From: Horticoccus luteus | Lineage (GTDB): Bacteria; Verrucomicrobiota; Verrucomicrobiia; Opitutales; Opitutaceae | DNA: 32,000 bases | Direction: 5' to 3' | Assembly: GCF_019464535.1 (NCBI RefSeq) | Contig: NZ_CP080507.1 | Span: forward strand, 3,810,001 to 3,842,000 | Shown: piece after piece, positions 6,299-32,000 of the stretch | How positions within the stretch are numbered: position 1 is the stretch's first letter | Layout of the letters: the number at the start of each line of letters is the position of its first letter | Notes under the pieces: model-generated | The model's input: only the letters and a program-made list of their open reading frames with translations | Databases searched by the model: none | Told to the model about the DNA's origin: nothing | Position numbers and translations under genes: made by a program

Positions 6299-7150
6299 TT
6301 ACACTCGGTAAAACGCCTCGGCGTTGCGCACGTAGAGCTTGTGGCATTCGTCCGGCGACGCGCCCGCGAGCGCATCGTCCAGCGTCTGCACCCAGCGCGG
6401 ATAATCCGTCGCCTGCGACGCCACCGGCCAGTCGCCGCCAAACATCACGCGGTCGAACCCGAAACAATCCATCACGTGGTCGATGTAAGGCCGCAGATCG
6501 GCGGCCGTCCATTTCTGGAAATCCGCCTCGGTCACGAGCCCCGACATCTTGCAGACCACATTCGGAAACGCCGCCAGCTCCCGCAACTCCGCCCGCCACG
6601 GATCAAGCAGCCCCGCCTTGATGTCGGGCTTGCCGATGTGATCGAGCACGAAGCTCACATTGGGACACTGCCGCACGAGCTTGATCGTGTTGGCGAGCTG
6701 CCGGTGGTTGACGCAAAGGTCGAACGACAATCCGTGCCGCGGCAGAAGTTGCACGCCGCGCACGAAATCCGGCTGCAGACAAAACGCCTGATCCGCCTCG
6801 AACTGGATGATGCGCCGGATGCCCTTGATCAACGGATTCGCCGCGAGCCGCGCGAGATCCGCCTCCGCGGCGTCGCCTTTTTCCAGCGGCGCCCACGGCA
6901 CGATGCCGCGGATGCGCGGATCGATCGCCGCCATCTCCGTCACCCAATCCGCCTCCTCCTGAAACTGCGCGAAGTCCGCCTCGCACTGGAGAAACACCAT
7001 CTTCGCCACCTGCACCGGCCCGCACACGCGCCGGTATTCGTCGATGAGATGATTCCGGTTCAACATCGGCACGCCCGCCAGCCAGGGATAACGCAAGCGG
7101 TCCAGATTCCAGATGTGCAGATGAGTGTCGACGATGGGGAAGTTGGGCAT
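6299..7150 (-). CDS. amidohydrolase-2 family (COG3618-type) sugar lactonase, L-fucono/L-rhamnono-lactonase-like
   Basis: MPNFPIVDTHLHIWNLDRLRYPWL... (the HxH metal motif at the N-terminus), ...VLDHIGKPDI... and ...VMFGGDWPV... are hallmarks of the amidohydrolase_2 lactonase/LigI group. Substrate assignment is inference. Confidence 0.8.
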   Translation of the reverse strand: MPNFPIVDTHLHIWNLDRLRYPWLAGVPMLNRNHLIDEYRRVCGPVQVAKMVFLQCEADFAQFQEEADWVTEMAAIDPRIRGIVPWAPLEKGDAAEADLARLAANPLIKGIRRIIQFEADQAFCLQPDFVRGVQLLPRHGLSFDLCVNHRQLANTIKLVRQCPNVSFVLDHIGKPDIKAGLLDPWRAELRELAAFPNVVCKMSGLVTEADFQKWTAADLRPYIDHVMDCFGFDRVMFGGDWPVASQATDYPRWVQTLDDALAGASPDECHKLYVRNAEAFYRV

Positions 7151-7202
7151 GAGGGGTGCGGCGTGGAGGGTTGATGCAACGACAGGAAAAATACTCCAAA
7201 TT

Positions 7203-7250
7203 CCAAGCTCCTGATTCGCAGTTGGAAGTTTGATCCTCTCTGGAGCTTGG
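7203..7250. repeat. 9-bp perfect inverted repeat CCAAGCTCC / GGAGCTTGG (30-nt loop) in the AT-richer gap between the 2-hydroxyacid dehydrogenase and lactonase genes
   Basis: The arms are at 7203-7211 and 7242-7250. A competing pairing TTCCAA (7201-06) / TTGGAA (7222-27) shares the left arm. On the minus-strand transcript the structure is followed by ...GGAGTATTTTTCC. Its presence is certain from the sequence; its function is unknown. Confidence 0.5.
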
Positions 7251-7287
7251 CGGTTGGCGCTCGGCGCTTTAGTCGCGATCCGCGCGA

Positions 7288-8247
7288 CTATCGGTTGACC
7301 ACATTCTTCAACGGTTCGCCCTTGAGTCCGCGCACCACTTCCTCGCCCGCGAGCTGCTGCAGCCGCGGGATGCTGCTCTCGCTATACCACGCGAGGTGCG
7401 AGGTGATCAGGAGATTCGGCGCGTTGCGCAACGGATGGTCCGCCTCAAGAGGCTCCTTCTCGAAAACGTCGAGGCCCGCCGCCCCGATCGTGCCGTCGGT
7501 CAACGCCGCCGCCAGCGCCACCGTATCCACCAACGGCCCGCGCGCGGTGTTCACGACAATCGCCGTTTTCTTCATCTGCGCGAGCGTGCGCGCATTCACC
7601 AAATGCTTCGTCTCCGGCGTCAGCGGCGAGTGGAGCGACAGGATGTCGGCGCGCGCAAACAACTGATCGAGCTCCACCTTTTCCACGCCTTCCGCCGCCA
7701 TCGCTTCCGTCGACACGAACGGATCGTAGGCGATCAGCTTGCAGCCGAACGCCCGCATCATCCCATGCGCCGTGCGCGCGATGCGCCCGAAACCTGCCGT
7801 CGCAAACGTCGACGTGCGCAGCGACGGCATCGGCTTGTCCGGGGTGATTTTCCACGTGCCCGCGCGAAAACGCCGGTCGATCTGCGGCAGTTGGCGCGCC
7901 AGCGCGAGCGCCAAGGACACCGCGTGTTCCGCCACTTCATGCACGCCGTAGTCCGGCACGTTGCACACCGGAATTCCGCGCGCCTTCGCCGCCGCGAGGT
8001 CGACGTTGTCCACCCCGATGCCGTAACGCACGATCACCTTGCAACGCGTCAGCGCGGCAATCACCGCGGCGTTGATCGGCGCCCATTGCACCAGCAACGC
8101 ATCGGCGTCGCGGGCGGCTGCGATGACGTCGTCCGCCGTTTTGCATTGGGCCACGACCAGCTCCGCGCCGATCGAGTCAAGCGCGGCCTGCTCGTGCTTG
8201 AGATTGGGAAAACCGTGATCGGTGACGAGGGCGCGTAGTGTGCTCAT
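7288..8247 (-). CDS. D-isomer-specific 2-hydroxyacid dehydrogenase family (CtBP/glyoxylate-reductase-like), NAD-binding
   Basis: ...KVIVRYGIGVDNVDLAAAKARGIPVCNVPDYGVHEVAEHAVSLALALARQL..., the nucleotide loop ...ATAGFGRIARTAHGMMRAFGCKLIAYDP..., and ...IVVNTARGPLVD...GAAGLDVFEKEP... ...ITSHLAW. Confidence 0.9.
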   Translation of the reverse strand: MSTLRALVTDHGFPNLKHEQAALDSIGAELVVAQCKTADDVIAAARDADALLVQWAPINAAVIAALTRCKVIVRYGIGVDNVDLAAAKARGIPVCNVPDYGVHEVAEHAVSLALALARQLPQIDRRFRAGTWKITPDKPMPSLRTSTFATAGFGRIARTAHGMMRAFGCKLIAYDPFVSTEAMAAEGVEKVELDQLFARADILSLHSPLTPETKHLVNARTLAQMKKTAIVVNTARGPLVDTVALAAALTDGTIGAAGLDVFEKEPLEADHPLRNAPNLLITSHLAWYSESSIPRLQQLAGEEVVRGLKGEPLKNVVNR

Positions 8248-8306
8248 GGAATGGTTAAGATAGAAAGATCGATTGTGGTGGAGTGAAGCGGCGCCGCGGC
8301 GGCGAA

Positions 8307-9134
8307 TTATCGCGAGCCCGCGATCTTGCTCGTCTGCCCGAGCCCCTCGGGGCCGATTCCGTTGTAGCCACCGTCCACGGGCAAGTCCGTGCCGGTGATG
8401 AACGATGCGTCGTCGCTCAACAAAAACAGCGCCGGGCCCGCCATCTCCACCGGATGCCCCATGCGCCCGAGCATGTGATACTGGCCCCAGATCGGATCGA
8501 ATTTCGCACGATCACCGCCCGCCGCTTTATCCACCTCGCGCGTCCAAATCCACCCCGGGCTGATGCTGTTCACGCGGATGTTGTCCGGCGCGAGATCGAG
8601 CGCCGCGCAACGCGTGAGCTGCGTCACCGCGCCCTTCGACATGTTGTAGGTCCAGCGGTTGGGCTGCGCGACCCACGACGAGATGCTCGACACATTCACC
8701 ACCGCGCCGCCGCCGTTTTTCTTCATCTCCACGGAGGTGAGCTGGATCATCAACGCGAAACCCAGCGGACCAACTTTCAGCGAATGGAGAAAATCCTCGC
8801 GCGTCGCCTCGAGTCCTTTCGCGATGAACGAAAACGCGTTGTTCACCAGGTAGTCGAGCCGTCCGAACTTCGCGACCGTTTCCGCCACGAGCCGGCGGCA
8901 GAACACCTCGTCCGACATATCGCCCGCAACGACGAGCGGTTCAAAACCCGCCGCCGCAAACGCCCGCCGGCCGTCCTCCGCGTCCACCGGCAAACCACTC
9001 ACCGCCACCTGCGCGCCCTCGCGCAGCAGCTCCAGCGCGATGGCATGGCCGATGCCGTTGGTGCCGCCTGTGACGAGCGCGACTTTACCTTTGAAACGTC
9101 CGGAGACCGGCGAGCGCGTGGGGTTCGTGAGCAT
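8307..9134 (-). CDS. short-chain dehydrogenase/reductase (SDR) family oxidoreductase
   Basis: GKVALVTGGTNGIGHAIALEL (TGxxxGxG), NNAF, and the catalytic S...YNMSK (YxxxK) with ...IRVNSISPGWIWT. Confidence 0.9.
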   Translation of the reverse strand: MLTNPTRSPVSGRFKGKVALVTGGTNGIGHAIALELLREGAQVAVSGLPVDAEDGRRAFAAAGFEPLVVAGDMSDEVFCRRLVAETVAKFGRLDYLVNNAFSFIAKGLEATREDFLHSLKVGPLGFALMIQLTSVEMKKNGGGAVVNVSSISSWVAQPNRWTYNMSKGAVTQLTRCAALDLAPDNIRVNSISPGWIWTREVDKAAGGDRAKFDPIWGQYHMLGRMGHPVEMAGPALFLLSDDASFITGTDLPVDGGYNGIGPEGLGQTSKIAGSR

Positions 9135-9156
9135 AGAGCGAAATAGAGTTACTCAA

Positions 9157-9243
9157 TCAGGAGAGTTCACCGAAAAATAGCGCGCATTGCAAAGCCGCGA
9201 ACGTCGCACAGAAGGCAACCAAGGGGAACGAGGAGTGCTTCAT
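9157..9243 (-). CDS. speculative small ORF encoding a 28-aa hydrophobic peptide (MKHSSFPLVAFCATFAALQCALFFGELS)
   Basis: I translated the reverse complement of 9157-9243 by hand: ATG (cat 9241-9243) to TGA (tca 9157-9159). It sits on the same strand as the flanking operon genes, inside an otherwise unexplained 217-nt gap, with GAAGG 7 nt upstream of the ATG. GC3 is about 70% by my count, lower than neighbouring genes, so coding status is doubtful. Confidence 0.2.
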   Translation of the reverse strand: MKHSSFPLVAFCATFAALQCALFFGELS

Positions 9244-9351
9244 TCCGGGACCTTCGCTTTCTTCGTCACCTTCCGTAAGAGGGATTGAAATTCGAGTTCG
9301 ATGGCGGCCGGTGCAGCGTGGCGCGGTCGTGGCAAAAAAGAGGCCGCCCGG

Positions 9352-10368
9352 TCAGGGCGCGATGACCACTTTGATGTCGTTGCCCTTCGCGGCGAGCGCG
9401 CGGTGAAATCCCGTGACCCCGTCCTCGAGCGGGAAACGTTGCACCCAGCTCAGCGCGTCGACCTTGCCCGCCGCCATGAGATCGAGCGCTTGCTGCAGCT
9501 CCTCGATCTTCGCCGCGTAAGTGCCGAGCACCTGCCGCTCGGGCAACGTGATCGCGTAGGAATCGAGCGTCATCGCGTTTTCGTGCAGCCCGATCCAGAC
9601 CACGCCGCCGCCCGGCCGCAGCGCTTCGATCGACGCCTTCTTGGTGATGCCCGCGCCCACCGCATCGACCGCCAGATCCGCGCCCTCGCCGCCCGTCTCG
9701 GCCTGCATCACCTTCACAATGTCTTCCTCGCGCGGATTGATCGTGCGCGCCGCGCCGAGTTTCCTGGCAACCGCCAGACGCTCGGGACTGAGATCCGCCA
9801 CCAAGACGCGCGCCCCGCGGACAACCTGCAACGCCTGCTGGCAGAACAACCCGATCGGCCCTGCGCCAATCACGAGGGCCGTCGACACCGCGAGATGGCG
9901 CGTGAGATTCGCCACGTGCAGGCCGTTGGCCATCGGCTCCGCCAGCGCCGCCGCTTCCGCCGGCACATTGTCGGGCCACGGAATGAGACAGCGCGCCGGG
10001 ACGTTGACGTAGTCTGCAAACGCACCCGGCCGATGCATGCCGAAAATCTGCCGCTGCGCACACAGGTGCGTGTCGCCGCGCTCGCAACGCACGCAACGCC
10101 CGCACGGCACGAGGGAATTGCTCACGACGCGTGCGCCTTCCCGCCAGCCGCGCACGTCGGCGCCGGTCTCGGCAATCACGCCGCAAAACTCGTGGCCCAT
10201 CACAATCGGCGGGGCTCGCCGCGGGCTGTGATTCTTGAATGTTTCGAGTTCGCTCCCGCAGATTCCGCACGCCGCGACTTGCACGCGCACCTCGTCCGGC
10301 CGCAGTGGCGTGAGGTCCACATCGCGGATCTCCAGTTGGTCGAACGCCGGATAAAAGAGCGTGCGCAT
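9352..10368 (-). CDS. zinc-dependent medium-chain alcohol/polyol dehydrogenase (MDR family)
   Basis: An internal ATG (cat 10366-10368) gives MRTLFYPAFDQLEIRDVDLTPLRPDEVRVQVAACGICGSELE...GHEFCGVIAETG...CGRCVRCERGDTHLC... (catalytic and structural Zn motifs) and the Rossmann loop VIGAGPIGLF. The 66 upstream codons of ORF 9352..10566 look non-coding. Confidence 0.9.
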   Translation of the reverse strand: MRTLFYPAFDQLEIRDVDLTPLRPDEVRVQVAACGICGSELETFKNHSPRRAPPIVMGHEFCGVIAETGADVRGWREGARVVSNSLVPCGRCVRCERGDTHLCAQRQIFGMHRPGAFADYVNVPARCLIPWPDNVPAEAAALAEPMANGLHVANLTRHLAVSTALVIGAGPIGLFCQQALQVVRGARVLVADLSPERLAVARKLGAARTINPREEDIVKVMQAETGGEGADLAVDAVGAGITKKASIEALRPGGGVVWIGLHENAMTLDSYAITLPERQVLGTYAAKIEELQQALDLMAAGKVDALSWVQRFPLEDGVTGFHRALAAKGNDIKVVIAP

Positions 10369-10580
10369 GATAGGCGTTTTCGGTGCCGCGCCCCGCGTCT
10401 GAACGCAAGGGCAACCTTCATGAAATTTCGCGCCTCGCCCGTTTTTCGTCACGCGCATCCTCGACCTTCGCTCGCGACCGGGGCGAACCGTCCGCCCCGA
10501 AGCCGCGCACGCCATCGCGCGCCCTTCATTCCCCACCCCGAGCTTGAGTTTTCCTCGGCGGCGCATTCCGACTGTGGGCC

Positions 10581-12923
10581 ATGAGCCACGTATCCGCCTC
10601 TTTGTCCGCGCTTGGCGTGCGCGCGATCACCTTCCCCACCCGCTGCGACGTCGCCGAGCAAACCGCCGCCGACGAACTTGCGCGCCTCACGGATGCGCGC
10701 GTCGCCTCCGCCAATCGCCCCGGCAAGGGGTTCAACGTCGCTCTTGCCCACCGCGCCTGGGCGCCCGCCGCCGCGAAAGCGGCCGGCGATGCCGCGAGCT
10801 GGATCTGGCTGCGCGTCGACGATCACGGCGCCGGCGAAATCATCGCCACCGAGGGCTCCGGCCTCTTCGCCGCCGCGCGCCTCCTCGCCCACGGCCTCAC
10901 CGGCGCGACGCGCGAAAAACTCGCCGCCGGCCTCCTTCTGCCGCGCAGCTTCTCCATGAACCGCCCGATCTGGGATGGCTCGTTCGCGCAGTATTGGAAA
11001 TCCAACCGCGGGTTTTCCCCCGAGCAATACGCCGCGACGCTCGCCGAAGCCGGCTTCACCCACCTTGAGGTCAACAGTCTGCAGGCGAGTTTTCCCTACG
11101 AGGATTCCGTGCCCGGCGAATACTACTCGCAGTTCTACACCTACTGCCCCGGGTTCAACCACTTCATCGACACGCCGCTCACCCGCGGGTTCTGGCCCGC
11201 GCAATACCTCGATGCCAACCTCGAGCGCTTGCAAAACCTCGCCGCCCTCGCCCGCAAATACGGCCTCAAGCCCTCCGTCTGTCTTTACGAACCGCGCTCG
11301 CTCCCCGAACGATTCTTTCAACGTTATCCCACGCTCCGCGGCGCGCGCATCGATCATCCTTTCCGCTCCCGCCTGCCGCGTTACACGATGGCGCAGGATC
11401 ACCCCGTGGTGAAACATCACTTCCGCCTCGCCACGCAGGCGTTGATGAAGGCCGTGCCCGATCTCGACGCCATGTCGATCTGGACCAACGACAGCGGCGG
11501 CGGCTTCGAACACACCGCCTCGCTCTACATCGGCCGCAACGGCGGCCCCTACATGATTCGCGAATGGCGCAGCGCCGATAAGATTGCGGAAGCTTCCGGT
11601 AAAAGTATCGGCGCCTTCCTTCGCAACGTGCGCGGAGCCGCCGCCGAGGTGAACCCCGACTTCCAGCTCAGTCTTCGCATCGAACCGTTCAAGATGGAGC
11701 ACGACCATCTCAAGTCCGAGCTGGGCCGCGGCGTCCATTGGGAAGGCCCGTCCATGCTCGCGCGCGGTTATGCGCTGCCCTACAGCCATCCGCACTACGC
11801 CGACCAACAGGGCGTCGCCGGCGGCATGTTCCATTGCCAGATGGATCCGCGCGAAAAACCCGAGCTCGCGAAAGAACGCGCGCAGGGCATCGAACCCATT
11901 CTCACCTATTCCCCCGGCCCGGTGTGGAATCAGGAACCGCTCATCGGCATCCCCTGGCCGCGCATGATTCACGCGCGCCTCTCGCAGTTGAAAGAAATCG
12001 GCGCCGATCTCGTCAGCGCGATGGGCGGCCTCGCCAACACCACCGCCACTCCGTTCTGGCCCAATCCCGCCGCCATTCGCGCCGCGCAATTCACACCCGA
12101 ACGCAGCATCGACGACGTCCTTACCGACGAAGCCGTGCGCTTCGCCGGCACCACGCATGGCCCGGCGCTCGCCAAAGCCTGGGCGCTGTTCGAAGAAGCC
12201 GTCACGTGGCAGCCGATCGTGCCGCTGTTCTGCGGCTTCGGCTTCTGCTGGCAACGCACCTGGGACCGCCCGCTCGTGCCCGACATCGAAGCCATCCCCG
12301 CCGCCGATCGTTTCTATTACGAGCGCCACGGCTGCTTCCAGCACAACAACCCCGGGGTGAACGATCTCGGCAAAGACGTGCTCTTCAACCTCATCACCCG
12401 CGAATCCGCCGACAAGATGGTGCCGCGCTTCGACAAGAATCTGTTCCCGCGGATCGCCAAGACGGAAAAATTCATCGCCGGTGTCCTGGCCAAGTGCGGT
12501 GACGATGCCCAAGCCACCGCCGCCTTCGCCGATTTGCGCGACCGCATTCGCGCCTACCGGCATTGGGCCGTCACGCTGCGCAGCGTCGCCGCGTGGTGCT
12601 CCGGCGTCTACGGCTACCTCGAAAGCAAAACCGCCGCGCAAAAGAAAGCGCACGAGAAATTCCTCCAGGCCGCCATCGATCTCGAAATCGACAACGCGCG
12701 CGGTCTGCTCGACCACTTCGAGCATTCGCCCACCGAGTTCATGGTCGTGTCCGCCACCGGCGAAAACACGTTCATCTACGGCAAAAATTTCGGCGAACAC
12801 CTTCGCGCCAAAATCCGCCTGATGGAAAAATACCGGCACAAAAAGCCGCGCATCGACAAAGACATCCTCTGGCGCGCCCCCACCGGCCAGCCCTGGCCGG
12901 AAGGGTTTCCGTTTCAGAAGTGA
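10581..12923 (+). CDS. uncharacterised 780-aa cytoplasmic protein, paralog A (putative alpha/beta N-domain + TIM barrel + helical C-domain; possible carbohydrate-active enzyme)
   Basis: Long GC3-rich ORF with ATG at 10581 and no signal peptide. It is collinear with CDS 14061..16388, and I recognise no characterised family. Motifs include LAEAGFTHLEVN, CLYEPRS, YPTLRGARIDHPFRSRLPRY, NDSGGGFEHT, GRNGGPYMIREWR and LRIEPFK. Confidence 0.85.
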   Translation: MSHVSASLSALGVRAITFPTRCDVAEQTAADELARLTDARVASANRPGKGFNVALAHRAWAPAAAKAAGDAASWIWLRVDDHGAGEIIATEGSGLFAAARLLAHGLTGATREKLAAGLLLPRSFSMNRPIWDGSFAQYWKSNRGFSPEQYAATLAEAGFTHLEVNSLQASFPYEDSVPGEYYSQFYTYCPGFNHFIDTPLTRGFWPAQYLDANLERLQNLAALARKYGLKPSVCLYEPRSLPERFFQRYPTLRGARIDHPFRSRLPRYTMAQDHPVVKHHFRLATQALMKAVPDLDAMSIWTNDSGGGFEHTASLYIGRNGGPYMIREWRSADKIAEASGKSIGAFLRNVRGAAAEVNPDFQLSLRIEPFKMEHDHLKSELGRGVHWEGPSMLARGYALPYSHPHYADQQGVAGGMFHCQMDPREKPELAKERAQGIEPILTYSPGPVWNQEPLIGIPWPRMIHARLSQLKEIGADLVSAMGGLANTTATPFWPNPAAIRAAQFTPERSIDDVLTDEAVRFAGTTHGPALAKAWALFEEAVTWQPIVPLFCGFGFCWQRTWDRPLVPDIEAIPAADRFYYERHGCFQHNNPGVNDLGKDVLFNLITRESADKMVPRFDKNLFPRIAKTEKFIAGVLAKCGDDAQATAAFADLRDRIRAYRHWAVTLRSVAAWCSGVYGYLESKTAAQKKAHEKFLQAAIDLEIDNARGLLDHFEHSPTEFMVVSATGENTFIYGKNFGEHLRAKIRLMEKYRHKKPRIDKDILWRAPTGQPWPEGFPFQK

Positions 12924-12947
12924 TCCCGCCGGCCGCAGGCGCAGCCC

Positions 12948-13928
12948 ATGAATGCTCCCGGCCCTCAACCTCGGCAGCGCGCTGACACCGCGTGGTTCAA
13001 AGCATGCCGGTGGGGCTTGCTCGCGTGTTACCTGGCCGACACCGCGAGCAACCTCCAACCCATCGAGCTGTCCGTGGACGAGTGGAACCGCCGCATCGAT
13101 GCGTTCGATGTCGGCGCGCTCGCCGCTCAGCTCGCCACCGCACGCGTGCCGTATTTCATTCTCACGATCGGCCAGAACTCCGGCTATTATCTTTCGCCCA
13201 ACGCGACCTATGACCGCATCGTGGGCCGCGCGCCCAGCCGGCTCTCGCGCCGCGATCTGATCGCCGATCTCGCCGCCGCGCTTCAACCGCACGGCATCCG
13301 CCTTCTCGTCTATCTGCCCGCCACCGCTCCGCGCAACGACGAGCTCGCCAAAGCCCAATTGCAGGGCGACTCCGGCGAACACGGCCCCGACATGCGGCGC
13401 CACTGGGAGGAGATCTGCCGCGAGTGGTCGCTCCGCTGGGGCCGGGCCATCAGCGGCTGGTGGATCGACGGACCCTACGACGCGCCCGCCTATCAACACC
13501 CGGAGGCGCCCAACTACCGCAGCTACGCCGCAGCGCTGAAGGCCGGCAATCCCGACGCCATCGTCACCTTCAACAACGGCCTGCGCACGCCGATCTATTC
13601 GATGACCGAATACGAGGATTACACGCCCGGCGAAATCGAACGCGACATGACCGTCGCGCCCGGCATGCGCATGGACCCGCCGCGCCTCGATGCTTACCCC
13701 GAGTTCCTGAACGGCGCGCGTCTCCACGTGCTCACCCTCATGGGCGAATGGTGGGGCCAGGGCCCGGTGCGTTTCCCCGACGAAATGACCATCGGCTACA
13801 CCAAATTCATCAACGCTCGCGGTGGCGTCGTCACGTGGGATGCGCCGCTGCAAACCAATGGCACGCTTGACCCGGCGTTTCTTCCACAAATCACCGCCCT
13901 CGGTCGCACCATCTCCGGTTCCGCCTGA
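12948..13928 (+). CDS. glycoside-hydrolase-like TIM-barrel protein, distantly alpha-L-fucosidase (GH29)-like, cytoplasmic (326 aa)
   Basis: The block order resembles GH29: WFKACRWGLLACYL (compare WF..aKFGiFiHWG), VPYFILTIGQNSGYYLSPNATYD (compare aKYvVlTtKHHDGF.lw.S), RRDLIADLAAALQPHGIRLLVYL (compare DlV.el..A.Rk.GlkfG.Y), and ISGWWIDGPY (compare the WfDG nucleophile region). The canonical KHHDGF is not conserved and there is no signal peptide. The family call is tentative. Confidence 0.6.
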   Translation: MNAPGPQPRQRADTAWFKACRWGLLACYLADTASNLQPIELSVDEWNRRIDAFDVGALAAQLATARVPYFILTIGQNSGYYLSPNATYDRIVGRAPSRLSRRDLIADLAAALQPHGIRLLVYLPATAPRNDELAKAQLQGDSGEHGPDMRRHWEEICREWSLRWGRAISGWWIDGPYDAPAYQHPEAPNYRSYAAALKAGNPDAIVTFNNGLRTPIYSMTEYEDYTPGEIERDMTVAPGMRMDPPRLDAYPEFLNGARLHVLTLMGEWWGQGPVRFPDEMTIGYTKFINARGGVVTWDAPLQTNGTLDPAFLPQITALGRTISGSA

Positions 13929-14060
13929 TCGTCTCATCGGCGGTGGACGCGGCACAGCGTTGGTCCCACACGGGGAAGTGTGGTAGATAATCATCTTGTT
14001 CGGCGGTCAGCCTTGCATGTTGCGTCCGAGGCGCATTGGCCGGTGCCCGTCTCTTTCTCC

Positions 14061-16388
14061 ATGAGCCACCAATCTTCGCTCCTCGCCGCGCTCGACATGC
14101 GCACCATTTATTACCCGACCCGGTTTCAACCGGTCGAACAAACCGCCGCCGAGGAACTCGCCCGCCTGACCGGCGCCACCGCGCGCCGCTCCGTCCGCCC
14201 CGGCCAAGGCGTGAATCTCGCCCTCGCCTCCCGCGCGTGGGCCAAGTCCCTCCCCGCCGCTCAGGCCAACACCACCGGTTGGATGTGGCTCAAGCTCGCC
14301 GAGGATGGCACGGGCGAAATCATCGCCGACACCGGCGCGCTGCTTTACGCCGCCGTGCGTCTGCTCGCACACGGTCTCGGCGACGATGCCCGTGAGAAAC
14401 TTGCGCGCGGGCTCTTTTTGCCCGCCACGTTTCCGCACCATCGGCCGCATTGGGATAGTTGCCTCACGCAATACTGGCGCAGCGTGCGCAAATTCGACCG
14501 CGAAAAATATATAGCAACGCTCGCCGAAAGCGGCTTCACACACGTCGAGGTCAACGGACTGCAGGCGCACATGCCTTTCGAGGATACGGTCGTTTCAGAA
14601 TTCTATCCGCAGTTCTATACTTACTGCGCGGGCTTTAATCACTTCGTCGACACGCCGCTGACCGCCGGACTCTGGCCCACCCAATACCTCGAGGCCAATC
14701 TCCAGAACCTTCAGCAACTCGCCGCGCTGGGCCGCAAATACGGCCTCCAGCCCGGCCTGTGCATGTTCGAGCCGCGTTCGATGCCGGAACGACTCTTCCA
14801 GCGTTACCCGACCCTCCGCGGCGCCCGCGTCGATCATCCCTTCCGCTCCCGCCTGCCGCGCTACTGCCTGGCCCAGGATCACCCCGTCACCAAGCAGCAT
14901 TATCGCGCCGCCTTGCAGTCACTGATCAAGACCGTGCCCGATCTCAGCTACCTGAGCGTGTGGAGCAACGACAGCGGCGCCGGCTTCGAGCACACCGGCT
15001 CGCTCTACGTCGGCCGCAACGGCGGTCCTTATATGATCCGCGAATGGCGCAACCACGAGAAGATCGCCGAGGCCGCCGGCCAGAGCATCGTCCGCTACTT
15101 GCGCAACCTCCAACAGTCCGCCGCCGAGCTCAATCCCGACTTCGACATCTTCCTCCGCCTCGAACCTTTCAAGCTGGAACAGGATTATATCAAGGCCGGC
15201 ATGGGCAACCACATCGCTTGGGAAGCGCCCAGCCTGCTGGTCCGCGGCTACAGCCTGCCCTATACCCATCCGAAATATCCCACGATGAGCGGCGTGGCCG
15301 GCAGTCCGTTGCAGACGGAAATCGACGCCAGCGAACGCAAGGTGCTCGCCGAATCCCGGGCGCAAGGCGTTGAGCCCACCCTCCAATACGCCATCGGCAC
15401 CGCGGCCAGTTACGAGCCGCTCCTCGGCATTCCGTATCCGCGCTTGTTGCACAAAAAGCTCACCGCCATGCGCGAGCTCGGCCTCAAGCGCATCAGCGGC
15501 TACGGCGGCCTCAACAACCCCCAGCAGACGCCTTACTGGCCCAACCCCGCCGTCATCCGTGCCGCCCAGTTCATGCCGGACAAGTCCATCGACGACGTGC
15601 TGCTCGACGCCGCCCGCGAGTTCGTCGGCGCCAACCACGCCCCCGCGCTCGTGGCGTGTTGGGATGCCTTTGACGAGGCGTTGAGCTGGCAGCCGCCCGT
15701 CGCGCTTTTCACCGTCGCCTTCTCGTGGCAACGCACCTTCGACCGGCCCTACGTTCCCGACATCGAGGCGATTCCCGCCCAAGAACGCGCTTACTACGAA
15801 CGCTTCGGCTGCTTTCAATATAACAACCCGAGCCTGAACGATATTGGCAAAGACGTGCTCTTCGATCTCGTCACGCGCGAACAAGGTGGACAAGCGCTCG
15901 CCGGCTTCGATCAAAACGTCATTCCCCGCGTCGAAAAACTTCTCGCACGCCTCGCGCAGCTTGAAGCGCAAACCGCCGGCGAACCCAGCGTCCAGGCCGT
16001 GTTCAGCGACCTGCTCGATCGCACGCGCGCCTACCGGGCGCTCGTCGGTTCGCTCCGCATGGTGTGCGCGTGGTGCACCCATGTTTACGGCTATATCGAA
16101 AGCACCAAAGCAACCGACAAAAAGAAACACGAGCGGGCGCTCCAAACCGCCATCGACGACGAACTCGTCAACACCGCGAACCTCATCGCGCTCCTCGAAG
16201 CGAATCGCACGGAAGTCATGATTCTCTCCGCCATCGGCAACAATACGTTCTGTTACGGCGAAGACTTGCCCGATTTATTGCGCGAGAAAATCCGGCTCAT
16301 GAAAAAATACCGCCACCACCCGCCGCGCATCGACCAGAATATCCTCTGGCGCCCGCTCCCCGGGTCGCAGTGGCCGAAATTCGATTGA
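14061..16388 (+). CDS. uncharacterised 775-aa cytoplasmic protein, paralog B of CDS 10581..12923
   Basis: An internal ATG at 14061 gives MSHQSSLLAALDMRTIYYPTRFQPVEQTAAEELARL..., matching paralog A's MSHVSASLSALGVRAITFPTRCDVAEQTAADELARL.... The proteins are collinear to the C-terminus (...KIRLMKKYRHHPPRIDQNILWRP...). The 27 codons upstream in listed ORF 13980..16388 have no counterpart in paralog A. Confidence 0.85.
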   Translation: MSHQSSLLAALDMRTIYYPTRFQPVEQTAAEELARLTGATARRSVRPGQGVNLALASRAWAKSLPAAQANTTGWMWLKLAEDGTGEIIADTGALLYAAVRLLAHGLGDDAREKLARGLFLPATFPHHRPHWDSCLTQYWRSVRKFDREKYIATLAESGFTHVEVNGLQAHMPFEDTVVSEFYPQFYTYCAGFNHFVDTPLTAGLWPTQYLEANLQNLQQLAALGRKYGLQPGLCMFEPRSMPERLFQRYPTLRGARVDHPFRSRLPRYCLAQDHPVTKQHYRAALQSLIKTVPDLSYLSVWSNDSGAGFEHTGSLYVGRNGGPYMIREWRNHEKIAEAAGQSIVRYLRNLQQSAAELNPDFDIFLRLEPFKLEQDYIKAGMGNHIAWEAPSLLVRGYSLPYTHPKYPTMSGVAGSPLQTEIDASERKVLAESRAQGVEPTLQYAIGTAASYEPLLGIPYPRLLHKKLTAMRELGLKRISGYGGLNNPQQTPYWPNPAVIRAAQFMPDKSIDDVLLDAAREFVGANHAPALVACWDAFDEALSWQPPVALFTVAFSWQRTFDRPYVPDIEAIPAQERAYYERFGCFQYNNPSLNDIGKDVLFDLVTREQGGQALAGFDQNVIPRVEKLLARLAQLEAQTAGEPSVQAVFSDLLDRTRAYRALVGSLRMVCAWCTHVYGYIESTKATDKKKHERALQTAIDDELVNTANLIALLEANRTEVMILSAIGNNTFCYGEDLPDLLREKIRLMKKYRHHPPRIDQNILWRPLPGSQWPKFD

Positions 16389-16396
16389 GCCGCGAA

Positions 16397-16419
16397 GCGC
16401 GAATACCGCGCCGCTTTTT
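16397..16419 (+). terminator. weak intrinsic terminator candidate after paralog B
   Basis: gcgcg (16397-16401), loop aatac, cgcgc (16407-16411), then cgc and TTTTT (16415-19). It begins 9 nt after the TGA stop at 16386-88. The stem is only 5 bp. Confidence 0.35.
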
Positions 16420-16452
16420 CAAGCACACGCGCCCGCCCTTCAGCCGATCCCG

Positions 16453-16487: not shown

Positions 16488-17339
16488 TCACCCGCCGTGC
16501 GCCCGGCGGCGAAACTCCGACGGACTCATGCCCATCACCTGCTTGAACGCTTTCGAAAAGTGAAACACATCGCAAAACTCCAGCTCTTCCGCGAGCGCCT
16601 TGAACCCGTGGCTGCCGTGGTAAATCGCCGCGCCCGCCCGGTCGATTTTCCGACGCTTTTGAAACTGCCCCGGTGACTGTCCCACGCGCGCGGTGAACTG
16701 CTTGCGGAAGTTGTCGTAACTCAAACCCACGGCCGCCGCGACTTCCTGCGGCGTCGCCCAACGGCGCGCCCCCGGACTCCCCAGCAAACGCTGGCTCGCC
16801 TCCAGCCAAGTTGCGGTCGCCGGTCCCTCCGTCGCCTCGACCCGCGCCGCCAGCGCATCGCTCAGCAACGCCGAAAATCGGCCCACCGCCCGCAACGCCG
16901 CCGCCGGCGTATGGCCTTCCTCCGGCGCCACGATTTCCGCCATTCGCCGCCCCCAGTAATCCACCGGCTCCAACCGCCACACCGGCGGCGCCGCCGCGAG
17001 CAACCCCTGCGCCCGCCACAAATCGAACTGCGGCCCGTTGAACACGAAATAGATTTGCTGCCATGACTGTCCCTCCTTCGGCCCGTAAGCGTGCGCCAGC
17101 TCCGGCATGATCAGCACCAAATCTCCGCCGCTCAGATCGCACGCATAACCGTTTGCATCGCGGTAGTAGCCGTCCACCTCCAGCAGGTAAACGAGCGCGT
17201 AGCTTCCCAAAACTCGCATCGTCTTGGGATCCAGCCCGCGCGCGTCCCGCGCCACACCCGCCAACTGCAGCTCGCCTATGCTCGTCCGAAGCGGCGCTTC
17301 CAGCCATGCTTGGCCCAGCGTGGGAGATGTTTCCGGCAT
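16488..17339 (-). CDS. AraC/XylS family transcriptional regulator with N-terminal cupin-like sensor domain
   Basis: The C-terminal HTH pair is ...ATPQEVAAAVGLSYDNFRKQFTARVGQSPGQFQKRRKIDRAGAAIYHGSHGFKALAEELEFCDVFHFSKAFKQVMGMSPSEFRR. The N-terminus (...YALVYLLEVDGYYRDANGYACDLSGGDLVLIMPELAHAYGP...) is an AraC-type ligand-binding barrel. I chose the ATG at 17339 (MPETSP...); a TTG at 17348 is the alternative. Confidence 0.85.
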   Translation of the reverse strand: MPETSPTLGQAWLEAPLRTSIGELQLAGVARDARGLDPKTMRVLGSYALVYLLEVDGYYRDANGYACDLSGGDLVLIMPELAHAYGPKEGQSWQQIYFVFNGPQFDLWRAQGLLAAAPPVWRLEPVDYWGRRMAEIVAPEEGHTPAAALRAVGRFSALLSDALAARVEATEGPATATWLEASQRLLGSPGARRWATPQEVAAAVGLSYDNFRKQFTARVGQSPGQFQKRRKIDRAGAAIYHGSHGFKALAEELEFCDVFHFSKAFKQVMGMSPSEFRRRAHGG

Positions 17340-17488
17340 CGCGCCCAAAATTTACATGCCAAATCACATTTCAACCATTTTTTCTCCAGCCTTCTGCCTG
17401 TATGTTGGAGCCGGTTATTTGTTGTTTCTGCGGGCGGTTGCGACGGTTCCGCGTCGGGCCGCCCGCTTGTTCTCCCCTCTTCAAAATC

Positions 17489-18409
17489 ATGAGCACTGCC
17501 ACCCTCCCCCAAATCTATTCCTACGGCCACGCGCTCGACATGAGCGACGACAAGTTCGGCCTCCTGCGCGACTCCTCCGATGCCGCCACCGACTTCTTGG
17601 AACTCCGCCGGCGGTTTGCCGAAGACGGCTACCTTTACATGAAGGGCTATCTCGACCGCGCCGAAGTGCTCGAAGCCCGCGCCAGCTTGACGGCGCGCCT
17701 CGCGGAAGCCGGCGTCCTCGATGAAAATTATCCCGCCATCGAAGGCGTCGCGAAGAAAGACGCCGGTTACGTTTTCAAACCCGAAATCACCAACGGCAAC
17801 GAGGCCGTGCAACGCCTCCTCTATTCCGGTCGCCTGCTCGATTTTTATCGCCAGTTCTACGGCGAAGACGTCCGCCACTACGATTACACGTGGCTGCGCG
17901 CCATCTCGCCCGGCAAGGGGACCAATCCCCATTGCGATCTCCCTTACATGGGCCGCGGCACGCACAAGCACATGACGTGCTGGGTGCCCTACGGCGATGT
18001 CTCGTTCGACCTCGGTGGCCTCATGGTGCTCGAAGGTTCCCAGAAGCGCATGGACCTGTTGGAGAACTACGTTTACCGCGACGTCGACGCCTACTGCGAA
18101 AACAAGCCCAAGGAAGTGGCCAAAGCGAAGACCGGCGCGTGGTCGTTCACAGGCACGCTGTCCCACAACCCGCCCGCCGTGCGCAACAAGTTCGGCGGCC
18201 GCTGGCTTTCGACTGAATATCAGGCCGGCGACTTCATCACCTTCGGCATGTTCCTCGTGCACGCCTCCCTCGACAACCGCACGGAAAACCGTCTGCGCAT
18301 CTCGAGCGACAGTCGTTTCCAACGCGCCTCGGAGCCCGTCGATGAACGCTGGGTCGGCGCCAACCCGCCCGCCCACGGCGTATCCGGTAAACGCGGTCTG
18401 ATCTGCTGA
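17489..18409 (+). CDS. phytanoyl-CoA dioxygenase (PhyH) family Fe(II)/2-oxoglutarate-dependent oxygenase (306 aa)
   Basis: An ATG at 17489 gives MSTATLPQIY.... The N-terminal region ...ELRRRFAEDGYLYMKGYLDRAEV... has the PhyH pattern. The HxD motif is in GTNPHCDLPYMG, the distal His in FGMFLVHASLDN, and the Arg in LRISSDSRF. The upstream part of listed ORF 17153..18409 overlaps the AraC gene and is rejected. Confidence 0.8.
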   Translation: MSTATLPQIYSYGHALDMSDDKFGLLRDSSDAATDFLELRRRFAEDGYLYMKGYLDRAEVLEARASLTARLAEAGVLDENYPAIEGVAKKDAGYVFKPEITNGNEAVQRLLYSGRLLDFYRQFYGEDVRHYDYTWLRAISPGKGTNPHCDLPYMGRGTHKHMTCWVPYGDVSFDLGGLMVLEGSQKRMDLLENYVYRDVDAYCENKPKEVAKAKTGAWSFTGTLSHNPPAVRNKFGGRWLSTEYQAGDFITFGMFLVHASLDNRTENRLRISSDSRFQRASEPVDERWVGANPPAHGVSGKRGLIC

Positions 18410-18617: not shown

Positions 18618-19952
18618 ATGTCTGCCACCGCTTCCTCGCCCGCCACCTCGGCCTCGACGCCCTCCTCCAGCCGCATGGCGGCGGTCAACGAAATGACGCG
18701 GCTTCTGCGGCTGCTCTTCGAGGTGGAGCGGGAATTTCTGCGCACCGTCACCACGCTCATTTATCGCGTCGGCGAGCCGGAGCTGAAATATCTCATTTGT
18801 CAGCACGCATGGGAAAGCGCCGGACATGCCCGCTTCCTCCGTGAACGCGGACGCGAACTCACTGGCTTTGGCACGTCCGAAAACGTGCGCGATTCCATCC
18901 GCCGCGTCTTCGTCGAAGCCGTCGGCTCCGCGTCCTCGGATGCCCTCGTCTTGACGGCGGGCTTTTATGGCGTCCTCAAGCCCGCGTTGCTCGCCGCGTA
19001 TCGCCACTATCTCAAAGTCACCGATCACCTCGCTGACTGGCCCTCGAAAAAACTCGTCGAAGAATTCATCGGCGACGAAGAACGCCACCTCGCCGAAATC
19101 GCGCCGTTTATCACCGGCATCGAGGCGCGCGCGTGGACCCTCCATCTCACCCAGGCGCTCGACGATCTGGGCGGTTGGCTGGGCCAGGAAACGCGTCTGC
19201 CGCTCCCCGCCGGTTTCGTCTGGCAGCAGGAGAAGACGCCCTACGCGCATCCCCTCACCTGCAACCGCGGCAAGTATCCCGTGTGCTCCAGCATCTTCGG
19301 CTTTGATCCGACCGAGGATCCGATCGTCCGCCCCTGGCTTACCGATCCGAAGACCGATGCCCGCGTCATCCGCCTGATGGTTTACGTTTGGCTGATGATG
19401 GAAATGGATGCCATCGACTACCTCGCCACCGTCTTCATCGAAACGCTATCCGCGCCCTTCGATCTGCACCACGACCTCGCGCGCCACCTCTGGGATGAAT
19501 CGCGCCATAGCCAGTTCGGTTTCCGGCAACTGCCCAAACTCGGCGTCGACCTGATGACCGTGGAGCAGTCGCTGGAACTCTATAATATTCTCATCCACAT
19601 GCCGCCGCATGAGCGCTACGCAATGATGACGATGGAGTTCGAAGCCGGCAGTTTTCCGACGAAGGCCGCCGTGATGGACCGCGTGCGCGAGCTCAACGAT
19701 TTCGAAGCCGACACGCTCCTCGCCTTCGATCGCAACGACGAACAGAACCACGTCCGCTACGGCCACCGGTGGCTGCCGGAGATGATGGCCCTGTTTGGCG
19801 AAACGCGTCCCGTCGCGGAATTTGTCAAAGCCACGCAGGAGAAATTCCGCGAGCTCACGAAAGCGCACGGCAACAAAACACCGCACTCGCTCCCGAAAGA
19901 AAAGCGGCTCACCGGCGAAAAGATCCTCCGCCTCGCCGGCGTCAGCGCGTGA
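18618..19952 (+). CDS. tandem ferritin-like (four-helix-bundle diiron carboxylate) domain protein, function unknown (444 aa)
   Basis: The C-terminal half carries a full E...ExxH...E...ExxH set: LMMEMDAIDYL, HLWDESRHSQFGF, MTMEFEAGSF, DRNDEQNHVRYGHRW. The N-terminal half has a partial set (FEVEREF, AWESAGH, GDEERHLAEI). The first 19 codons (SATASSPATSASTPSSS) are low complexity, so the true start may be the ATG at 18675 (MAAVNEMTRLL...). Confidence 0.75.
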   Translation: MSATASSPATSASTPSSSRMAAVNEMTRLLRLLFEVEREFLRTVTTLIYRVGEPELKYLICQHAWESAGHARFLRERGRELTGFGTSENVRDSIRRVFVEAVGSASSDALVLTAGFYGVLKPALLAAYRHYLKVTDHLADWPSKKLVEEFIGDEERHLAEIAPFITGIEARAWTLHLTQALDDLGGWLGQETRLPLPAGFVWQQEKTPYAHPLTCNRGKYPVCSSIFGFDPTEDPIVRPWLTDPKTDARVIRLMVYVWLMMEMDAIDYLATVFIETLSAPFDLHHDLARHLWDESRHSQFGFRQLPKLGVDLMTVEQSLELYNILIHMPPHERYAMMTMEFEAGSFPTKAAVMDRVRELNDFEADTLLAFDRNDEQNHVRYGHRWLPEMMALFGETRPVAEFVKATQEKFRELTKAHGNKTPHSLPKEKRLTGEKILRLAGVSA

Positions 19953-20037
19953 GCGCCGTCGCGGCGCGCGCAAGGCGTGCCCCAACTCTTCACCGCGGGA
20001 TGATCCGCATCACCGCCGATTCCGCCGGCACTCCGGG

Positions 20038-20712
20038 CTACGCGCGAGCGCGGCGCCGCCACACGGCGAAACCGAGTATCGCGGCCCCCGCCATCATCGC
20101 ATAGGTCGAGGGCTCAGGGATCGCCGAGGCGCCGCTGCCGAGGTTTTGGTAATAGGTATTGTTACCGTCCGCGATGAAGGTGTTATAGTAACCATCGGCC
20201 GGCAGTGCACCCATATAGCCGGCGGACGTGGTCGGCGACCCATCATACCGCAGAGATCCCGCGCTCAATGTGAAGACGTCGCCCGCGGTCAAAAGCGTAT
20301 TAGCCGTATCCGTGGTGGCGTAGAACACCACATCGTCGGGGTGCACCGTGTTAAAATTAAAGTTCGACGCGAAAAAAGTATTGATCGTTTGAGTGCCGTC
20401 GCTGCTTCCGGCCCCCGTGCTCGTGTAGGTCGGTGCTACGCCTCCCACCGCTCCTTGCGTGCTGAAAATAGCCGAGCTCGTGGTGACCGATTGAAACACA
20501 AAAGTGGGATTTACGGCGCCGATGCCCGTGCTCCCAGTGAGCGTGTAAACAATAGGCGAAGACCAGGAAATCTTCACCTCCGATCCGTGGCCGCCCGTAA
20601 ATGTCAGATATACTCCCTGCGCCCGCGTTGTAGCGGCGAGTGTGAACGCGATCAGAGCGACGAGCGAGGCGGCGGCCTTGCGACTGCACGGGACGAGAGC
20701 GATCATTTTCAT
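20038..20712 (-). CDS. PEP-CTERM sorting-domain surface protein (224 aa)
   Basis: An ATG (cat 20710-20712) gives MKMIALVPCSRKAAASLVALIAFTLAATTRAQG (signal peptide). The C-terminus ...AIPEPSTYAMMAGAAILGFAVWRRRARA is a textbook PEP-CTERM motif, TM helix and Arg cluster. The Thr/Ser/Gly/Asn-rich body has no recognisable domain. Confidence 0.85.
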   Translation of the reverse strand: MKMIALVPCSRKAAASLVALIAFTLAATTRAQGVYLTFTGGHGSEVKISWSSPIVYTLTGSTGIGAVNPTFVFQSVTTSSAIFSTQGAVGGVAPTYTSTGAGSSDGTQTINTFFASNFNFNTVHPDDVVFYATTDTANTLLTAGDVFTLSAGSLRYDGSPTTSAGYMGALPADGYYNTFIADGNNTYYQNLGSGASAIPEPSTYAMMAGAAILGFAVWRRRARA

Positions 20713-20938
20713 AGTGCTGGCTGTTTTCTCCGATTCACCGGGACCATTAACGAGTGGTTGATAATGCAAATAACAGAGGAATGAATCCTCGGAGGTGATT
20801 TCACGGTATTTTATTCCCCGCTTCCGCTACCGGAAATCGCCCGTCTGAAGATGTTGCGTTTACGACTGAGTCGAAGACTCGGCGGAAATCACTGACCCTT
20901 CGTCCGCCGCAATAGTGCAAGCCGGACATCGGCCGGAC

Positions 20939-21931: not shown

Positions 21932-22087
21932 AGAGATGAGGCGGGGTTATATGATGTAGGGGTTGGAGGCACTGTCGTCGCCAAACGACCGCGAGGGGCT
22001 GGACCGAGCTAATCCCGGATCTGGCCCACCCGCCGCGTCATGCGGTCCGTGTTATTGCCAACCAACGGCGAGTCCATCCGGCGGGGA

Positions 22088-22118
22088 CGAATCGCGGTGC
22101 CCGTGTGGCGAATCGCGG
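22088..22118. promoter_or_regulatory. candidate LytTR response-regulator binding site: perfect 10-bp direct repeat CGAATCGCGG x2 with an 11-bp spacer (21-bp phasing)
   Basis: CGAATCGCGG occurs at 22088-22097 and again at 22109-22118. The site is 19-49 nt beyond the stop of the LytTR regulator gene and 157-187 nt upstream of the ATG of the PEP-CTERM propeller gene on the same strand. The function is inference. Confidence 0.4.
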
Positions 22119-22136
22119 GGCTCGGCCACTGGCAGC

Positions 22137-22889: not shown

Positions 22890-22896
22890 CGCCAAT

Positions 22897-25578: not shown

Positions 25579-25685
25579 AAAACATTTCCGCCCGCGATCG
25601 CGCTGGCCTTCTCCCGACCTCGCGCCCGCCGTTGGTGCCTCGATCGCGCATTGCGCGCCACGGGCTTGCCGTCATCCTCCCGCGT

Positions 25686-28741: not shown

Positions 28742-28751
28742 ACACCTTCGT

Positions 28752-31721: not shown

Positions 31722-32000
31722 ATGAAACGCTATCTCCTCCTCTTCCTCCTGGCCGCCGGCGTCGTCTCCGCGCAGACGCCGCTCTTTCCCGGCCTCAAGT
31801 CGATCATGACCGCCGAGGAATACGAGCGTTCGGGCCTCGCGCAGCTCACCCCCGAACAACTCTCGTTCATCGATGCCGCCATCATGCGCCACATCACCGA
31901 GCAGACCAGCGTCGGCGCCATGGCCAATCCCCGCAACGCCGACAACATCGGCCTCGACCAGAAGTCCCACTACGGACTGCCCGACCTCGGCGATGACTGG
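31722..32000 (+). CDS. N-terminal fragment of a secreted hypothetical protein (3' end outside the window)
   Basis: Hand translation from the ATG at 31722 gives MKRYLLLFLLAAGVVSAQTPLFPGLKSIMTAEEYERSGLAQLTPEQLSFIDAAIMRHITEQTSVGAMANPRNADNIGLDQKSHYGLPDLGDDW. The frame is open to the window end, has a clear signal peptide and is GC3-rich. It is absent from the ORF track, presumably because it has no stop. Confidence 0.65.
   Translation, partial: MKRYLLLFLLAAGVVSAQTPLFPGLKSIMTAEEYERSGLAQLTPEQLSFIDAAIMRHITEQTSVGAMANPRNADNIGLDQKSHYGLPDLGDDW

Follow-up and report, generated by a model that had tools for sequence, protein, structure and literature searches.

A candidate family of cytoplasmic glycosidase-like proteins within a conserved gene cluster of Horticoccus luteus and other Opitutaceae

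Three-domain TIM-barrel glycosidases are a known kind of protein, and the closest described relatives in fold of the proteins considered here belong to it. The alpha-galacturonidase BT0997 of glycoside hydrolase (GH) family 138 is part of the Bacteroides system for degradation of rhamnogalacturonan-II, and the GH67 alpha-glucuronidases have as substrates aldouronates, acidic oligosaccharides that are imported or associated with the cell. Opitutaceae (Verrucomicrobiota) are polysaccharide degraders common in freshwater, in soil and on plants. The genome of one of them, the soil bacterium Horticoccus luteus, carries two long paralogous genes, A (K0B96_15510) and B (K0B96_15520), on either side of a shorter, GH29-related gene (K0B96_15515, the middle gene), in a stretch of 32,000 nucleotides (nt) that was analysed as a whole (contig NZ_CP080507.1, positions 3,810,001–3,842,000; hereafter the window). 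All three are annotated by NCBI as hypothetical proteins, with the same lengths as found here, and A is 100% identical to K0B96_15510. An earlier note on this DNA had proposed that the three genes form an operon for an undescribed sugar-processing system. The present analysis points instead to A and B as members of a new, cytoplasmic, glycosidase-like family whose substrate would be an imported oligosaccharide or glycoside and whose genes belong to a conserved catabolic cluster, a reading to which we give a probability of about 0.55.

The two paralogs (coordinates of all features are given in Table 1) align by BLASTP with 57% identity and 72% positives over 774 amino acids (aa), with a single 1-residue gap and E = 0, and are collinear, as the earlier note had described. 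Its estimate of about 54% identity over the first ~106 residues, with a more similar centre, was accurate: the first 106 residues are 53.8% identical, and residues 121–540 are 60.5% identical. Every motif that it quoted as invariant was found at matching positions in the two proteins, with GFTH at 158, EPRS at 237, YPTLRGAR at 249, NDSG at 303, GRNGGPYMIREWR at 318 and EPFK at 368 in both, and VPDIEAIPA at 566/565, YYER at 579/578 and KIRLM at 744/743 in A and B, respectively. The three genes share strand and reading frame (all start coordinates are 0 mod 3) and are separated by gaps of 24 nt (A to middle gene) and 132 nt (middle gene to B), again as reported. On inspection, the N-termini of all three proteins are unlike signal peptides, in line with the earlier view; a cytoplasmic location of A and B, and an imported substrate, are plausible.

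Sequence libraries gave no family for these proteins. Neither A nor B matched any Pfam-A or NCBIfam model (hmmscan, E ≤ 1), and ten distant members matched no Pfam family at E ≤ 0.01. Searches of PDB chain sequences with A (phmmer) and with a 34-member family hidden Markov model (HMM) returned only noise, such as designed helical bundles, and no GH match, the BT0997 entries 6hze, 6hzf and 6hzg included, at E ≤ 10. Among 5.8 billion proteins, 683 relatives were found. The best 120 of these are at least 58% identical, carry no Pfam domain, and are called 'hypothetical protein' where any name is given; those with a taxon label belong to Opitutae or other Verrucomicrobia. A profile search of 1.84 billion representatives at 50% identity gave 555 proteins at E ≤ 1e-3 (143 at E ≤ 1e-30), including full-length relatives of 20–40% identity and a shorter form of the family, ~600–650 aa long, without the N-terminal domain. 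The distant members come from Acidobacteriota/Bryobacteraceae, Lentisphaerae, Armatimonadota, KSB1, the PVC group and Rhodothermales, all unnamed or hypothetical, and with Verrucomicrobiota the family extends over at least six bacterial phyla. A literature search found no description of the family or of its gene cluster. The earlier statement that the proteins could not be assigned to a family is therefore upheld and, as far as these libraries show, both the sequence family and the cluster are undescribed in Pfam, NCBIfam, PDB and the literature, with the proviso that a very recent CAZy family may exist. If the function proposed below is correct, these proteins would represent a candidate new glycoside hydrolase family of ~555 clusters at 50% identity, for which there is no Pfam model or solved structure.

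The structure of A was predicted by AlphaFold2 from two alignments, one of 25 sequences and one of 58 sequences that included the distant subfamily. The first model had a predicted local distance difference test score (pLDDT) of 77 and a predicted template modelling score (pTM) of 0.84, and its confidence was lowest in the most conserved loops (253–270, 304–329 and 584–599). With 38 sequences added, mostly 21–36% identical to A, mean pLDDT rose from 77 to 92 (91.8, with pTM 0.93), and only residues 323–327 and the N-terminus were still uncertain. An N-terminal alpha/beta domain (residues 1–121) is followed in the model by a (beta/alpha)8 barrel (~126–481), with strands at about 126–130, 161–163, 230–236, 297–301, 362–366, 385–389, 440–443 and 477–481, and by an all-helical C-terminal bundle (~495–751). 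When both models were compared to PDB by Foldseek, full-length alignments of ~770–860 columns were obtained (probability 1.0, E-values 1e-15 to 1e-9), and the top 50 matches all belonged to GH138, GH67, GH20, GH89, GH84 or GH115, at 8–12% identity; the GH20-type matches are GH20C/GcnA and the GH89 match is NAGLU. By these models, A and B have the architecture of the GH138, GH67, GH115, GH20, GH84 and GH89 glycosidases. The earlier note had anticipated much of this from sequence patterns, namely an N-terminal domain of the GH20/GH67/GH115 type, a TIM barrel in the middle region and a helical last ~300 aa (~260 aa in the model), and the full-length matches include GH20, GH67, GH89 and GH115, as it had suggested they might. 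Its other suggestion for the middle region, a xylose-isomerase-like barrel, fell away: no barrel of this or the AP_endonuc_2 type is among the top 50 Foldseek matches of either model, and there is no such Pfam match.

The best structural match of both models is BT0997 (6hze, 6hzf and 6hzg; E-values 1.5e-15 and 5.5e-13), with a template modelling (TM) score, normalised to the query, of 0.51–0.55 over ~830 columns that span all three domains. The likeness is confined to fold, however, as identity to A is 10–12%, the motifs differ, and even the family profile gave no sequence-level match at E ≤ 10. CAZy families are defined by sequence, and A shares with GH138 its overall fold and not its sequence. 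A further difference from the BT0997 system is that A and B appear, by inspection, to have no signal peptide. The GH67 alpha-glucuronidases AguA/GlcA67A (1mqq, 1gql, 1h41 and 1k9d) show the same three-domain architecture (E ~1e-12, TM 0.40–0.47), with 10–12% identity and no match of A or B to a GH67 Pfam domain at E ≤ 1; their part in the use of aldouronates is the kind of role proposed here for A and B. Full-length fold matches were also obtained to GH115, GH20, GH84 and GH89 (E 1e-12 to 1e-9, TM only 0.38–0.48), no Pfam domain of these families matches A or B at E ≤ 1, and no place was found in the A/B family for the substrate-assisted D-E or D-D pair of GH20 and GH84.

A set of polar residues is conserved across the superfamily (D132, N165, E237-P238-R239, R253-G254-R256-D258, H280, D304-S305, Y316, N320 and E373), all of them in the barrel region, and both A and B retain every one. 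Several are placed where a barrel enzyme would be expected to have them: D132, N165, E237-R239 and D304-S305 occur no more than two to three residues after modelled strands 126–130, 161–163, 230–236 and 297–301, respectively, E373 is seven residues past strand 362–366, and R253-D258 lie in a small beta-insertion after strand 4. Polar residues just after the strands are the usual active-site signature of TIM barrels, and the modelled A/B barrel shows it. Three arginines, R239, R253 and R256, show little or no variation. We infer that the family is exo-acting, cytoplasmic and glycoside-hydrolase-like, and that D132, N165, E237-P238-R239, R253/R256/D258, H280, D304-S305, Y316, N320 and E373 would form its catalytic centre.

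Gene neighbourhoods were compared by tblastn with the window proteins, using one genome per species (78 loci, each with an Opitutaceae or other Opitutae/Verrucomicrobia label); downstream partners were counted where at least 6 kb of downstream sequence was available (54 loci), and the upstream operon where the sequence reached at least 5 kb upstream (51 loci). The conserved system consists of the family protein together with GFO/IDH/MocA, PhyH and DUF455 proteins, an AraC regulator and a sodium:solute symporter (SSF), and the GFO/IDH/MocA dehydrogenase is the most constant partner. It is this set of genes, and not the A/GH29-like/B triad, that forms the unit of interest, and a candidate cytoplasmic step of Opitutaceae glycan catabolism within so well conserved a cluster is a concrete gap. 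The AraC gene is kept immediately downstream of the family gene, and in 10 loci the PhyH gene directly follows the family gene. The best PDB matches of the GFO partner are the unnamed GFO-family entries 3q2i and 3q2k, followed by DgpA and glucuronide-3-dehydrogenase (E = 4e-13), and no PDB match was found in sequence searches with the PhyH and DUF455 proteins. The SSF symporter is the probable importer of the substrate; SSF genes also adjoin distant family members in two other contigs (L081 and L083). The flanks of the triad are much as the earlier note had outlined them, with a sugar-oxidation-type operon upstream, AraC downstream and an exported-lyase-like gene nearby, all recognised by Pfam. 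Seventeen of the 51 loci have the divergent operon; the NCBIfam matches of its proteins are all below cut-off, the best for the Amidohydro_2 protein being L-fucono-1,5-lactonase. The heparinase II/III-like protein has a hydrophobic N-terminal segment that resembles a signal or membrane anchor, and is a candidate extracytoplasmic lyase feeding the pathway.

A 342-aa MetE-like (Meth_synt_2) gene was found in 21 of the 78 loci, in at least seven of them directly upstream of the family gene and on the same strand. Distant family members, too, have a MetE-like gene directly upstream, in an Acidobacteria metagenome-assembled genome (MAG) and in a locus with a TonB receptor, URO-D and PhyH proteins. 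The Acidobacteria and Opitutaceae MetE-like proteins share 60% identity, a likeness suggesting that a two-gene module (MetE-like plus family gene) was transferred. MetE-like genes occur at 8772–9800 of L079, 8880–9908 of L083 and 8956–9993 of L084, with apparent zinc-ligand motifs (H-x-C and PDCG); the window itself has none.

Other distant members are also set among carbohydrate-related genes, including TonB-dependent receptors, LacI, SSF and major facilitator superfamily (MFS) transporters, and AGE-like and weakly GH88-like proteins. The gene order in a Bryobacteraceae contig is LacI, TonB-type receptor, AGE-like, weakly GH88-like, MFS and family gene, and in L081 it is CN_hydrolase (8988–9986), family gene, SSF and 2-Hacid_dh. 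In L088 (Lentisphaerae), IclR and the family gene are followed by Hepar_II_III_N/C, a 973-aa protein and a beta-helix protein, while L089 has AraC, the family gene and CN_hydrolase (10183–11373), with GFO, two zinc alcohol dehydrogenases (Zn-ADH) and a DSE-like_N/Hepar_II_III_C protein nearby. Hepar_II_III-like proteins are thus found near family members in several unrelated lineages (the window, L021, L034, L035, L088 and L089). The two unrelated contigs in which CN_hydrolase, a nitrilase/amidase, immediately adjoins the family gene carry members of the Lentisphaerae/Armatimonadota-type subfamily, and hint at an amide-bearing substrate in that subfamily.

In the pathway proposed for the cluster, an oligosaccharide or glycoside would be produced outside the cell, here and in several distant genomes probably by a heparinase II/III-type lyase, and its import by the SSF symporter would be followed by cleavage by the family enzyme. 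The released sugar would then be processed by the GFO/IDH/MocA dehydrogenase, the PhyH and DUF455 proteins and the divergent dehydrogenase/lactonase-like operon, with the MetE-like protein replacing or joining PhyH/DUF455 in other lineages, and the AraC regulator would control the cluster genes. The substrate is most likely acidic and uronic-acid-containing, if the clues to it, weak as they are, can be trusted: the two best structural families, GH138 and GH67, are alpha-uronidases, three arginines (R239, R253 and R256) vary little or not at all, heparinase II/III-type lyases recur nearby, and the PDB matches of the GFO partner include glucuronide-3-dehydrogenase. A bolder version would have the cluster encode an undescribed cytoplasmic pathway, made up of the family enzyme, GFO and either PhyH/DUF455 or a zinc-type MetE-like alkyl- or methyltransferase, that releases a modified acidic sugar from an imported oligosaccharide and then strips the modification. 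The recurrence of PhyH/DUF455 or MetE-like partners hints at such a removal, by oxidation or methyl transfer, from, for example, an O-methylated uronic acid such as 4-O-methyl-glucuronate. If true, a new glycosidase family would be coupled to a new sugar-demodification chemistry, although we regard this as a long shot.

Several observations weigh against the glycosidase reading. One subfamily (7 of 34 sequences) has S, N or A in place of the candidate acid E237, and both E368 (of 'EPFK') and E388 (the glutamate in 'HWEG') are conserved only within Opitutaceae. The spatial clustering of the conserved residues and any catalytic carboxylate pair are deduced from strand positions only, the arginine clusters would suit phosphate or sulfate binding as well, and the fold match is to a broad structural group (TM 0.40–0.55, 8–12% identity) from which no single GH family stands out. 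Of the 78 related Opitutaceae loci, just three show the Hepar_II_III link and, to our knowledge, PhyH, DUF455, MetE-like and CN_hydrolase partners are untypical of known uronide pathways. Alternatively, the glycosidase-like fold might serve a non-hydrolytic reaction, either as an inverting glycoside phosphorylase in which the arginines hold phosphate, or as the beta-eliminase/lyase partner of GFO in oxidative cleavage of 3-keto-glycosides. DgpA and glucuronide-3-dehydrogenase, both relatives of the GFO partner, have a role in oxidative glycoside cleavage; the GFO gene is the most constant neighbour (47 of 54 loci), a cytoplasmic location suits phosphorylases, and the three near-invariant arginines are found in a family where no carboxylate pair can be identified as catalytic and E237 is lost from one branch. 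All top 50 structural matches are nevertheless hydrolases of the three-domain group, with no xylose-isomerase-like or AP_endonuc_2 barrel among them or in Pfam, and the barrel-region carboxylates (D132, E237, D258, D304 and E373) are conserved as they would be in a hydrolase. The GFO gene, moreover, is usually several genes away, on the far side of AraC, PhyH and DUF455, and adjoins the family gene in one locus only. A non-hydrolytic function is a serious competitor, albeit an unlikely one beside a glycosidase-like hydrolase.

The middle gene matches the alpha-L-fucosidase 9pnj (E = 3e-10, residues 11–213) and does not reach the gathering cut-off of PF01120 (E = 1.1e-3, 19 bits against 25.2); weak matches to GH107 endofucoidanases were also seen. 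The GH29 likeness pointed out in the earlier note is thus a remote homology, and the protein, at only 326 aa, differs from GH29 alpha-L-fucosidases in having no C-terminal beta-sandwich. A WWIDG sequence (D174) aligns with the 'yiddg' stretch of 9pnj, and presumably corresponds to the W-x-D-G motif that, going by human FUCA1, we take to hold the GH29 nucleophile, whereas the HWG motif usual near the N-terminus of GH29 enzymes is not conserved. The family of the middle gene has 1616 homologues of ~325 aa, many of which match PF01120, as do homologues 65–78% identical to it, and those with a taxon label are mostly from Opitutaceae or other Verrucomicrobia.

By tblastn, none of the 78 related loci has the middle gene. 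Among its orthologues with readable DNA, the closest is in a MAG that carries an A/B pair (L013), where it is situated on a different contig, adjoining a paralogue and CRISPR-Cas genes, while the A-B spacer of that MAG holds an unrelated insert of 2.8 kb. H. luteus has its own paralogue (K0B96_15625, 70% identical) about 23 genes downstream of the middle gene. In a MAG (L087), two short GH29-like genes stand in tandem beside a type I-C CRISPR-Cas locus. The spacer between A and B is prone to insertion, and the middle gene is a later insertion, seen only in the H. luteus genome among the loci compared. Since only 24 nt separate it from A, the two are probably co-transcribed.

These results bear directly on the suggestion that A, the GH29-like gene and B make up a dedicated three-enzyme system, here considered for a fucose-containing glycan. 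The three genes are contiguous, on one strand and closely spaced, the best sub-threshold NCBIfam match of the Amidohydro_2 protein is to a fuconolactonase, the list for the short-chain dehydrogenase/reductase (SDR) includes, lower down, L-fucose dehydrogenase, and one metagenomic contig has an 821-aa, Pfam-less protein directly before an 82%-identical orthologue of the middle gene. Such a triad is nonetheless very improbable, given its occurrence in 0 of 78 loci, the location of the L013 orthologue, the insertion-prone spacer, the missing HWG motif and a promoter-like element of B, described below, that is older than the insertion. The synteny that the earlier note had proposed to look for is not there, and the conserved unit is the family gene with its GFO, PhyH, DUF455, AraC and SSF partners.

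In a neighbour-joining tree built from 98 family sequences and rooted on two distant outgroup members, the A-type clade is sister to all other Opitutaceae sequences, on a long stem, and B falls among the single-copy genes found at the canonical position next to AraC. As judged from sequence, A and B are anciently diverged paralogues. An A-type and a B-type gene stand in tandem in 12 of the 78 loci, and the remaining 66 have a single copy. Each type is also found alone, A-type genes once beside integrases: in contig2 of Oleiharenicola lentus (L085, 4721–9075), a lone A-type gene has as neighbours a NACHT protein and three phage-integrase genes, and a further family copy of this genome is in a canonical cluster on another contig (L059). 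The position of the lone gene beside integrases and away from the canonical cluster, which has a copy of its own, indicates that the A-type gene may be mobile. Seventeen positions are fixed differently in the A clade, and eight of these (127, 130, 235, 236, 257, 297, 362 and 389) are in barrel strands or close beside them, or adjoin conserved residues.

The earlier note had left the choice between a heteromer and two specificities. An obligate heteromer of A and B would fit the retention of the tandem in 12 related genomes, and the related GH67 and GH115 enzymes are dimers. It is quite improbable when set against the 66 single-copy loci, the A-type and B-type genes that occur alone, the conserved promoter-like element that B has for itself, and the preservation of all conserved residues in both paralogues, neither of which resembles a degenerate subunit. 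Two different specificities are most likely, because all conserved residues are kept and several of the 17 clade-specific positions are by barrel strands.

The spacer before B contains an element of ~57 nt that lies 65–95 nt before the ATG of every B-type gene (in the window, L001–L013, L030 and L066); its columns are invariant in 13 genomes, with variable flanks. It can be read as a promoter, at 13960–13991 of the window, with a -35 box, an 18-nt spacer and an extended -10 box, possibly combined with an operator. Conservation of this element upstream of B-type genes in 13 genomes suggests that B has its own promoter, one that would predate the insertion of the middle gene. A single operon of A, middle gene and B, as earlier proposed, is accordingly doubtful, the gene order also being kept in none of the 78 loci. 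A search for a regulon motif found the element at no other site in the window. An upstream GTG at 13980 was considered as the start of B and rejected, as homologues and the NCBI annotation begin at the MSH codon; this GTG is inside the conserved element. Downstream, a terminator-like hairpin (16397–16411) begins 9 nt past the stop codon of B. Long open reading frames (ORFs) antisense to the genes of this region are taken as artefacts to be expected at 65% GC, among them one of 1181 aa across A and the middle gene (10449–13994, minus strand), for which there is no independent support. An Rfam scan of the whole window gave no RNA family.

Table 1. Features of the window. Positions are those of the window; fractions give the number of loci with the gene among the 54 with at least 6 kb downstream.
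Feature	Position	Strand	Basis and remarks
Heparinase II/III-like protein, 1084 aa	2941–6195	+	Pfam Hepar_II_III_C, E = 3e-10
Divergent operon	6299–10368	-	Pfam: Amidohydro_2 6299–7150, 2-Hacid_dh 7288–8247, SDR 8307–9134, Zn-ADH 9352–10368
Divergent intergenic region, Zn-ADH operon (-) / A (+)	10369–10580		Zn-ADH start MRTLFYPAF at 10368 (-)
Paralog A, K0B96_15510, 780 aa	10581–12923	+	ORF; uncharacterised three-domain glycosidase-like family, deep 'A' clade
GH29-related middle gene, K0B96_15515, 326 aa	12948–13928	+	ORF
Promoter-like or operator element, ~57 nt	13960–14016	+	TTGGT-N9-GGGAA-N3-TGGT-N3-TAAT, then CTTGC
Paralog B, K0B96_15520, 775 aa from MSH start	14061–16388	+	ORF; same family as A
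Terminator-like hairpin and T-run	16397–16421	+	GCGCGAATACCGCGC then CGCTTTTTCA; consensus match only
AraC-family regulator	16488–17348	-	Pfam HTH_18, HTH_AraC, AraC_binding; 39/54
PhyH-family Fe(II)/2-oxoglutarate dioxygenase	17489–18409	+	PF05721, E = 1.6e-12; 47/54
DUF455 protein	18618–19952	+	PF04305, E = 9e-13; 44/54
NHL/PEP-CTERM protein	20939–21931	-	Within ~6.7-kb block
Y_Y_Y/His_kinase sensor	22897–25578	-	Within ~6.7-kb block
FGE-sulfatase-domain protein	25569–26489		Within ~6.7-kb block
Sodium:solute symporter (SSF)	26615–28741	+	Pfam SSF, E = 5e-43; 25/54
GFO/IDH/MocA sugar dehydrogenase	28734–29852	+	Pfam; 47/54

In the window, the conserved block is split, the PhyH and DUF455 genes being separated from SSF and GFO by inserted genes at about 19795–26489. 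The PhyH-DUF455 and SSF-GFO pairs are contiguous in relatives, and a ~6.7-kb block lies between them here; GC content drops to 0.59 at 20001–22000. After the GFO gene come two conserved genes without a Pfam match, present in 32 and 38 of the 78 loci (in L079, at 13630–14169 and 14225–15088). The product of the first is a protein of 179 aa whose N-terminus is hydrophobic and resembles a signal peptide; the window has only a partial match to this protein (31788–31904). The second encodes a 287-aa protein with an 'AHPFF' motif, which we take to resemble that of aldose-1-epimerases.

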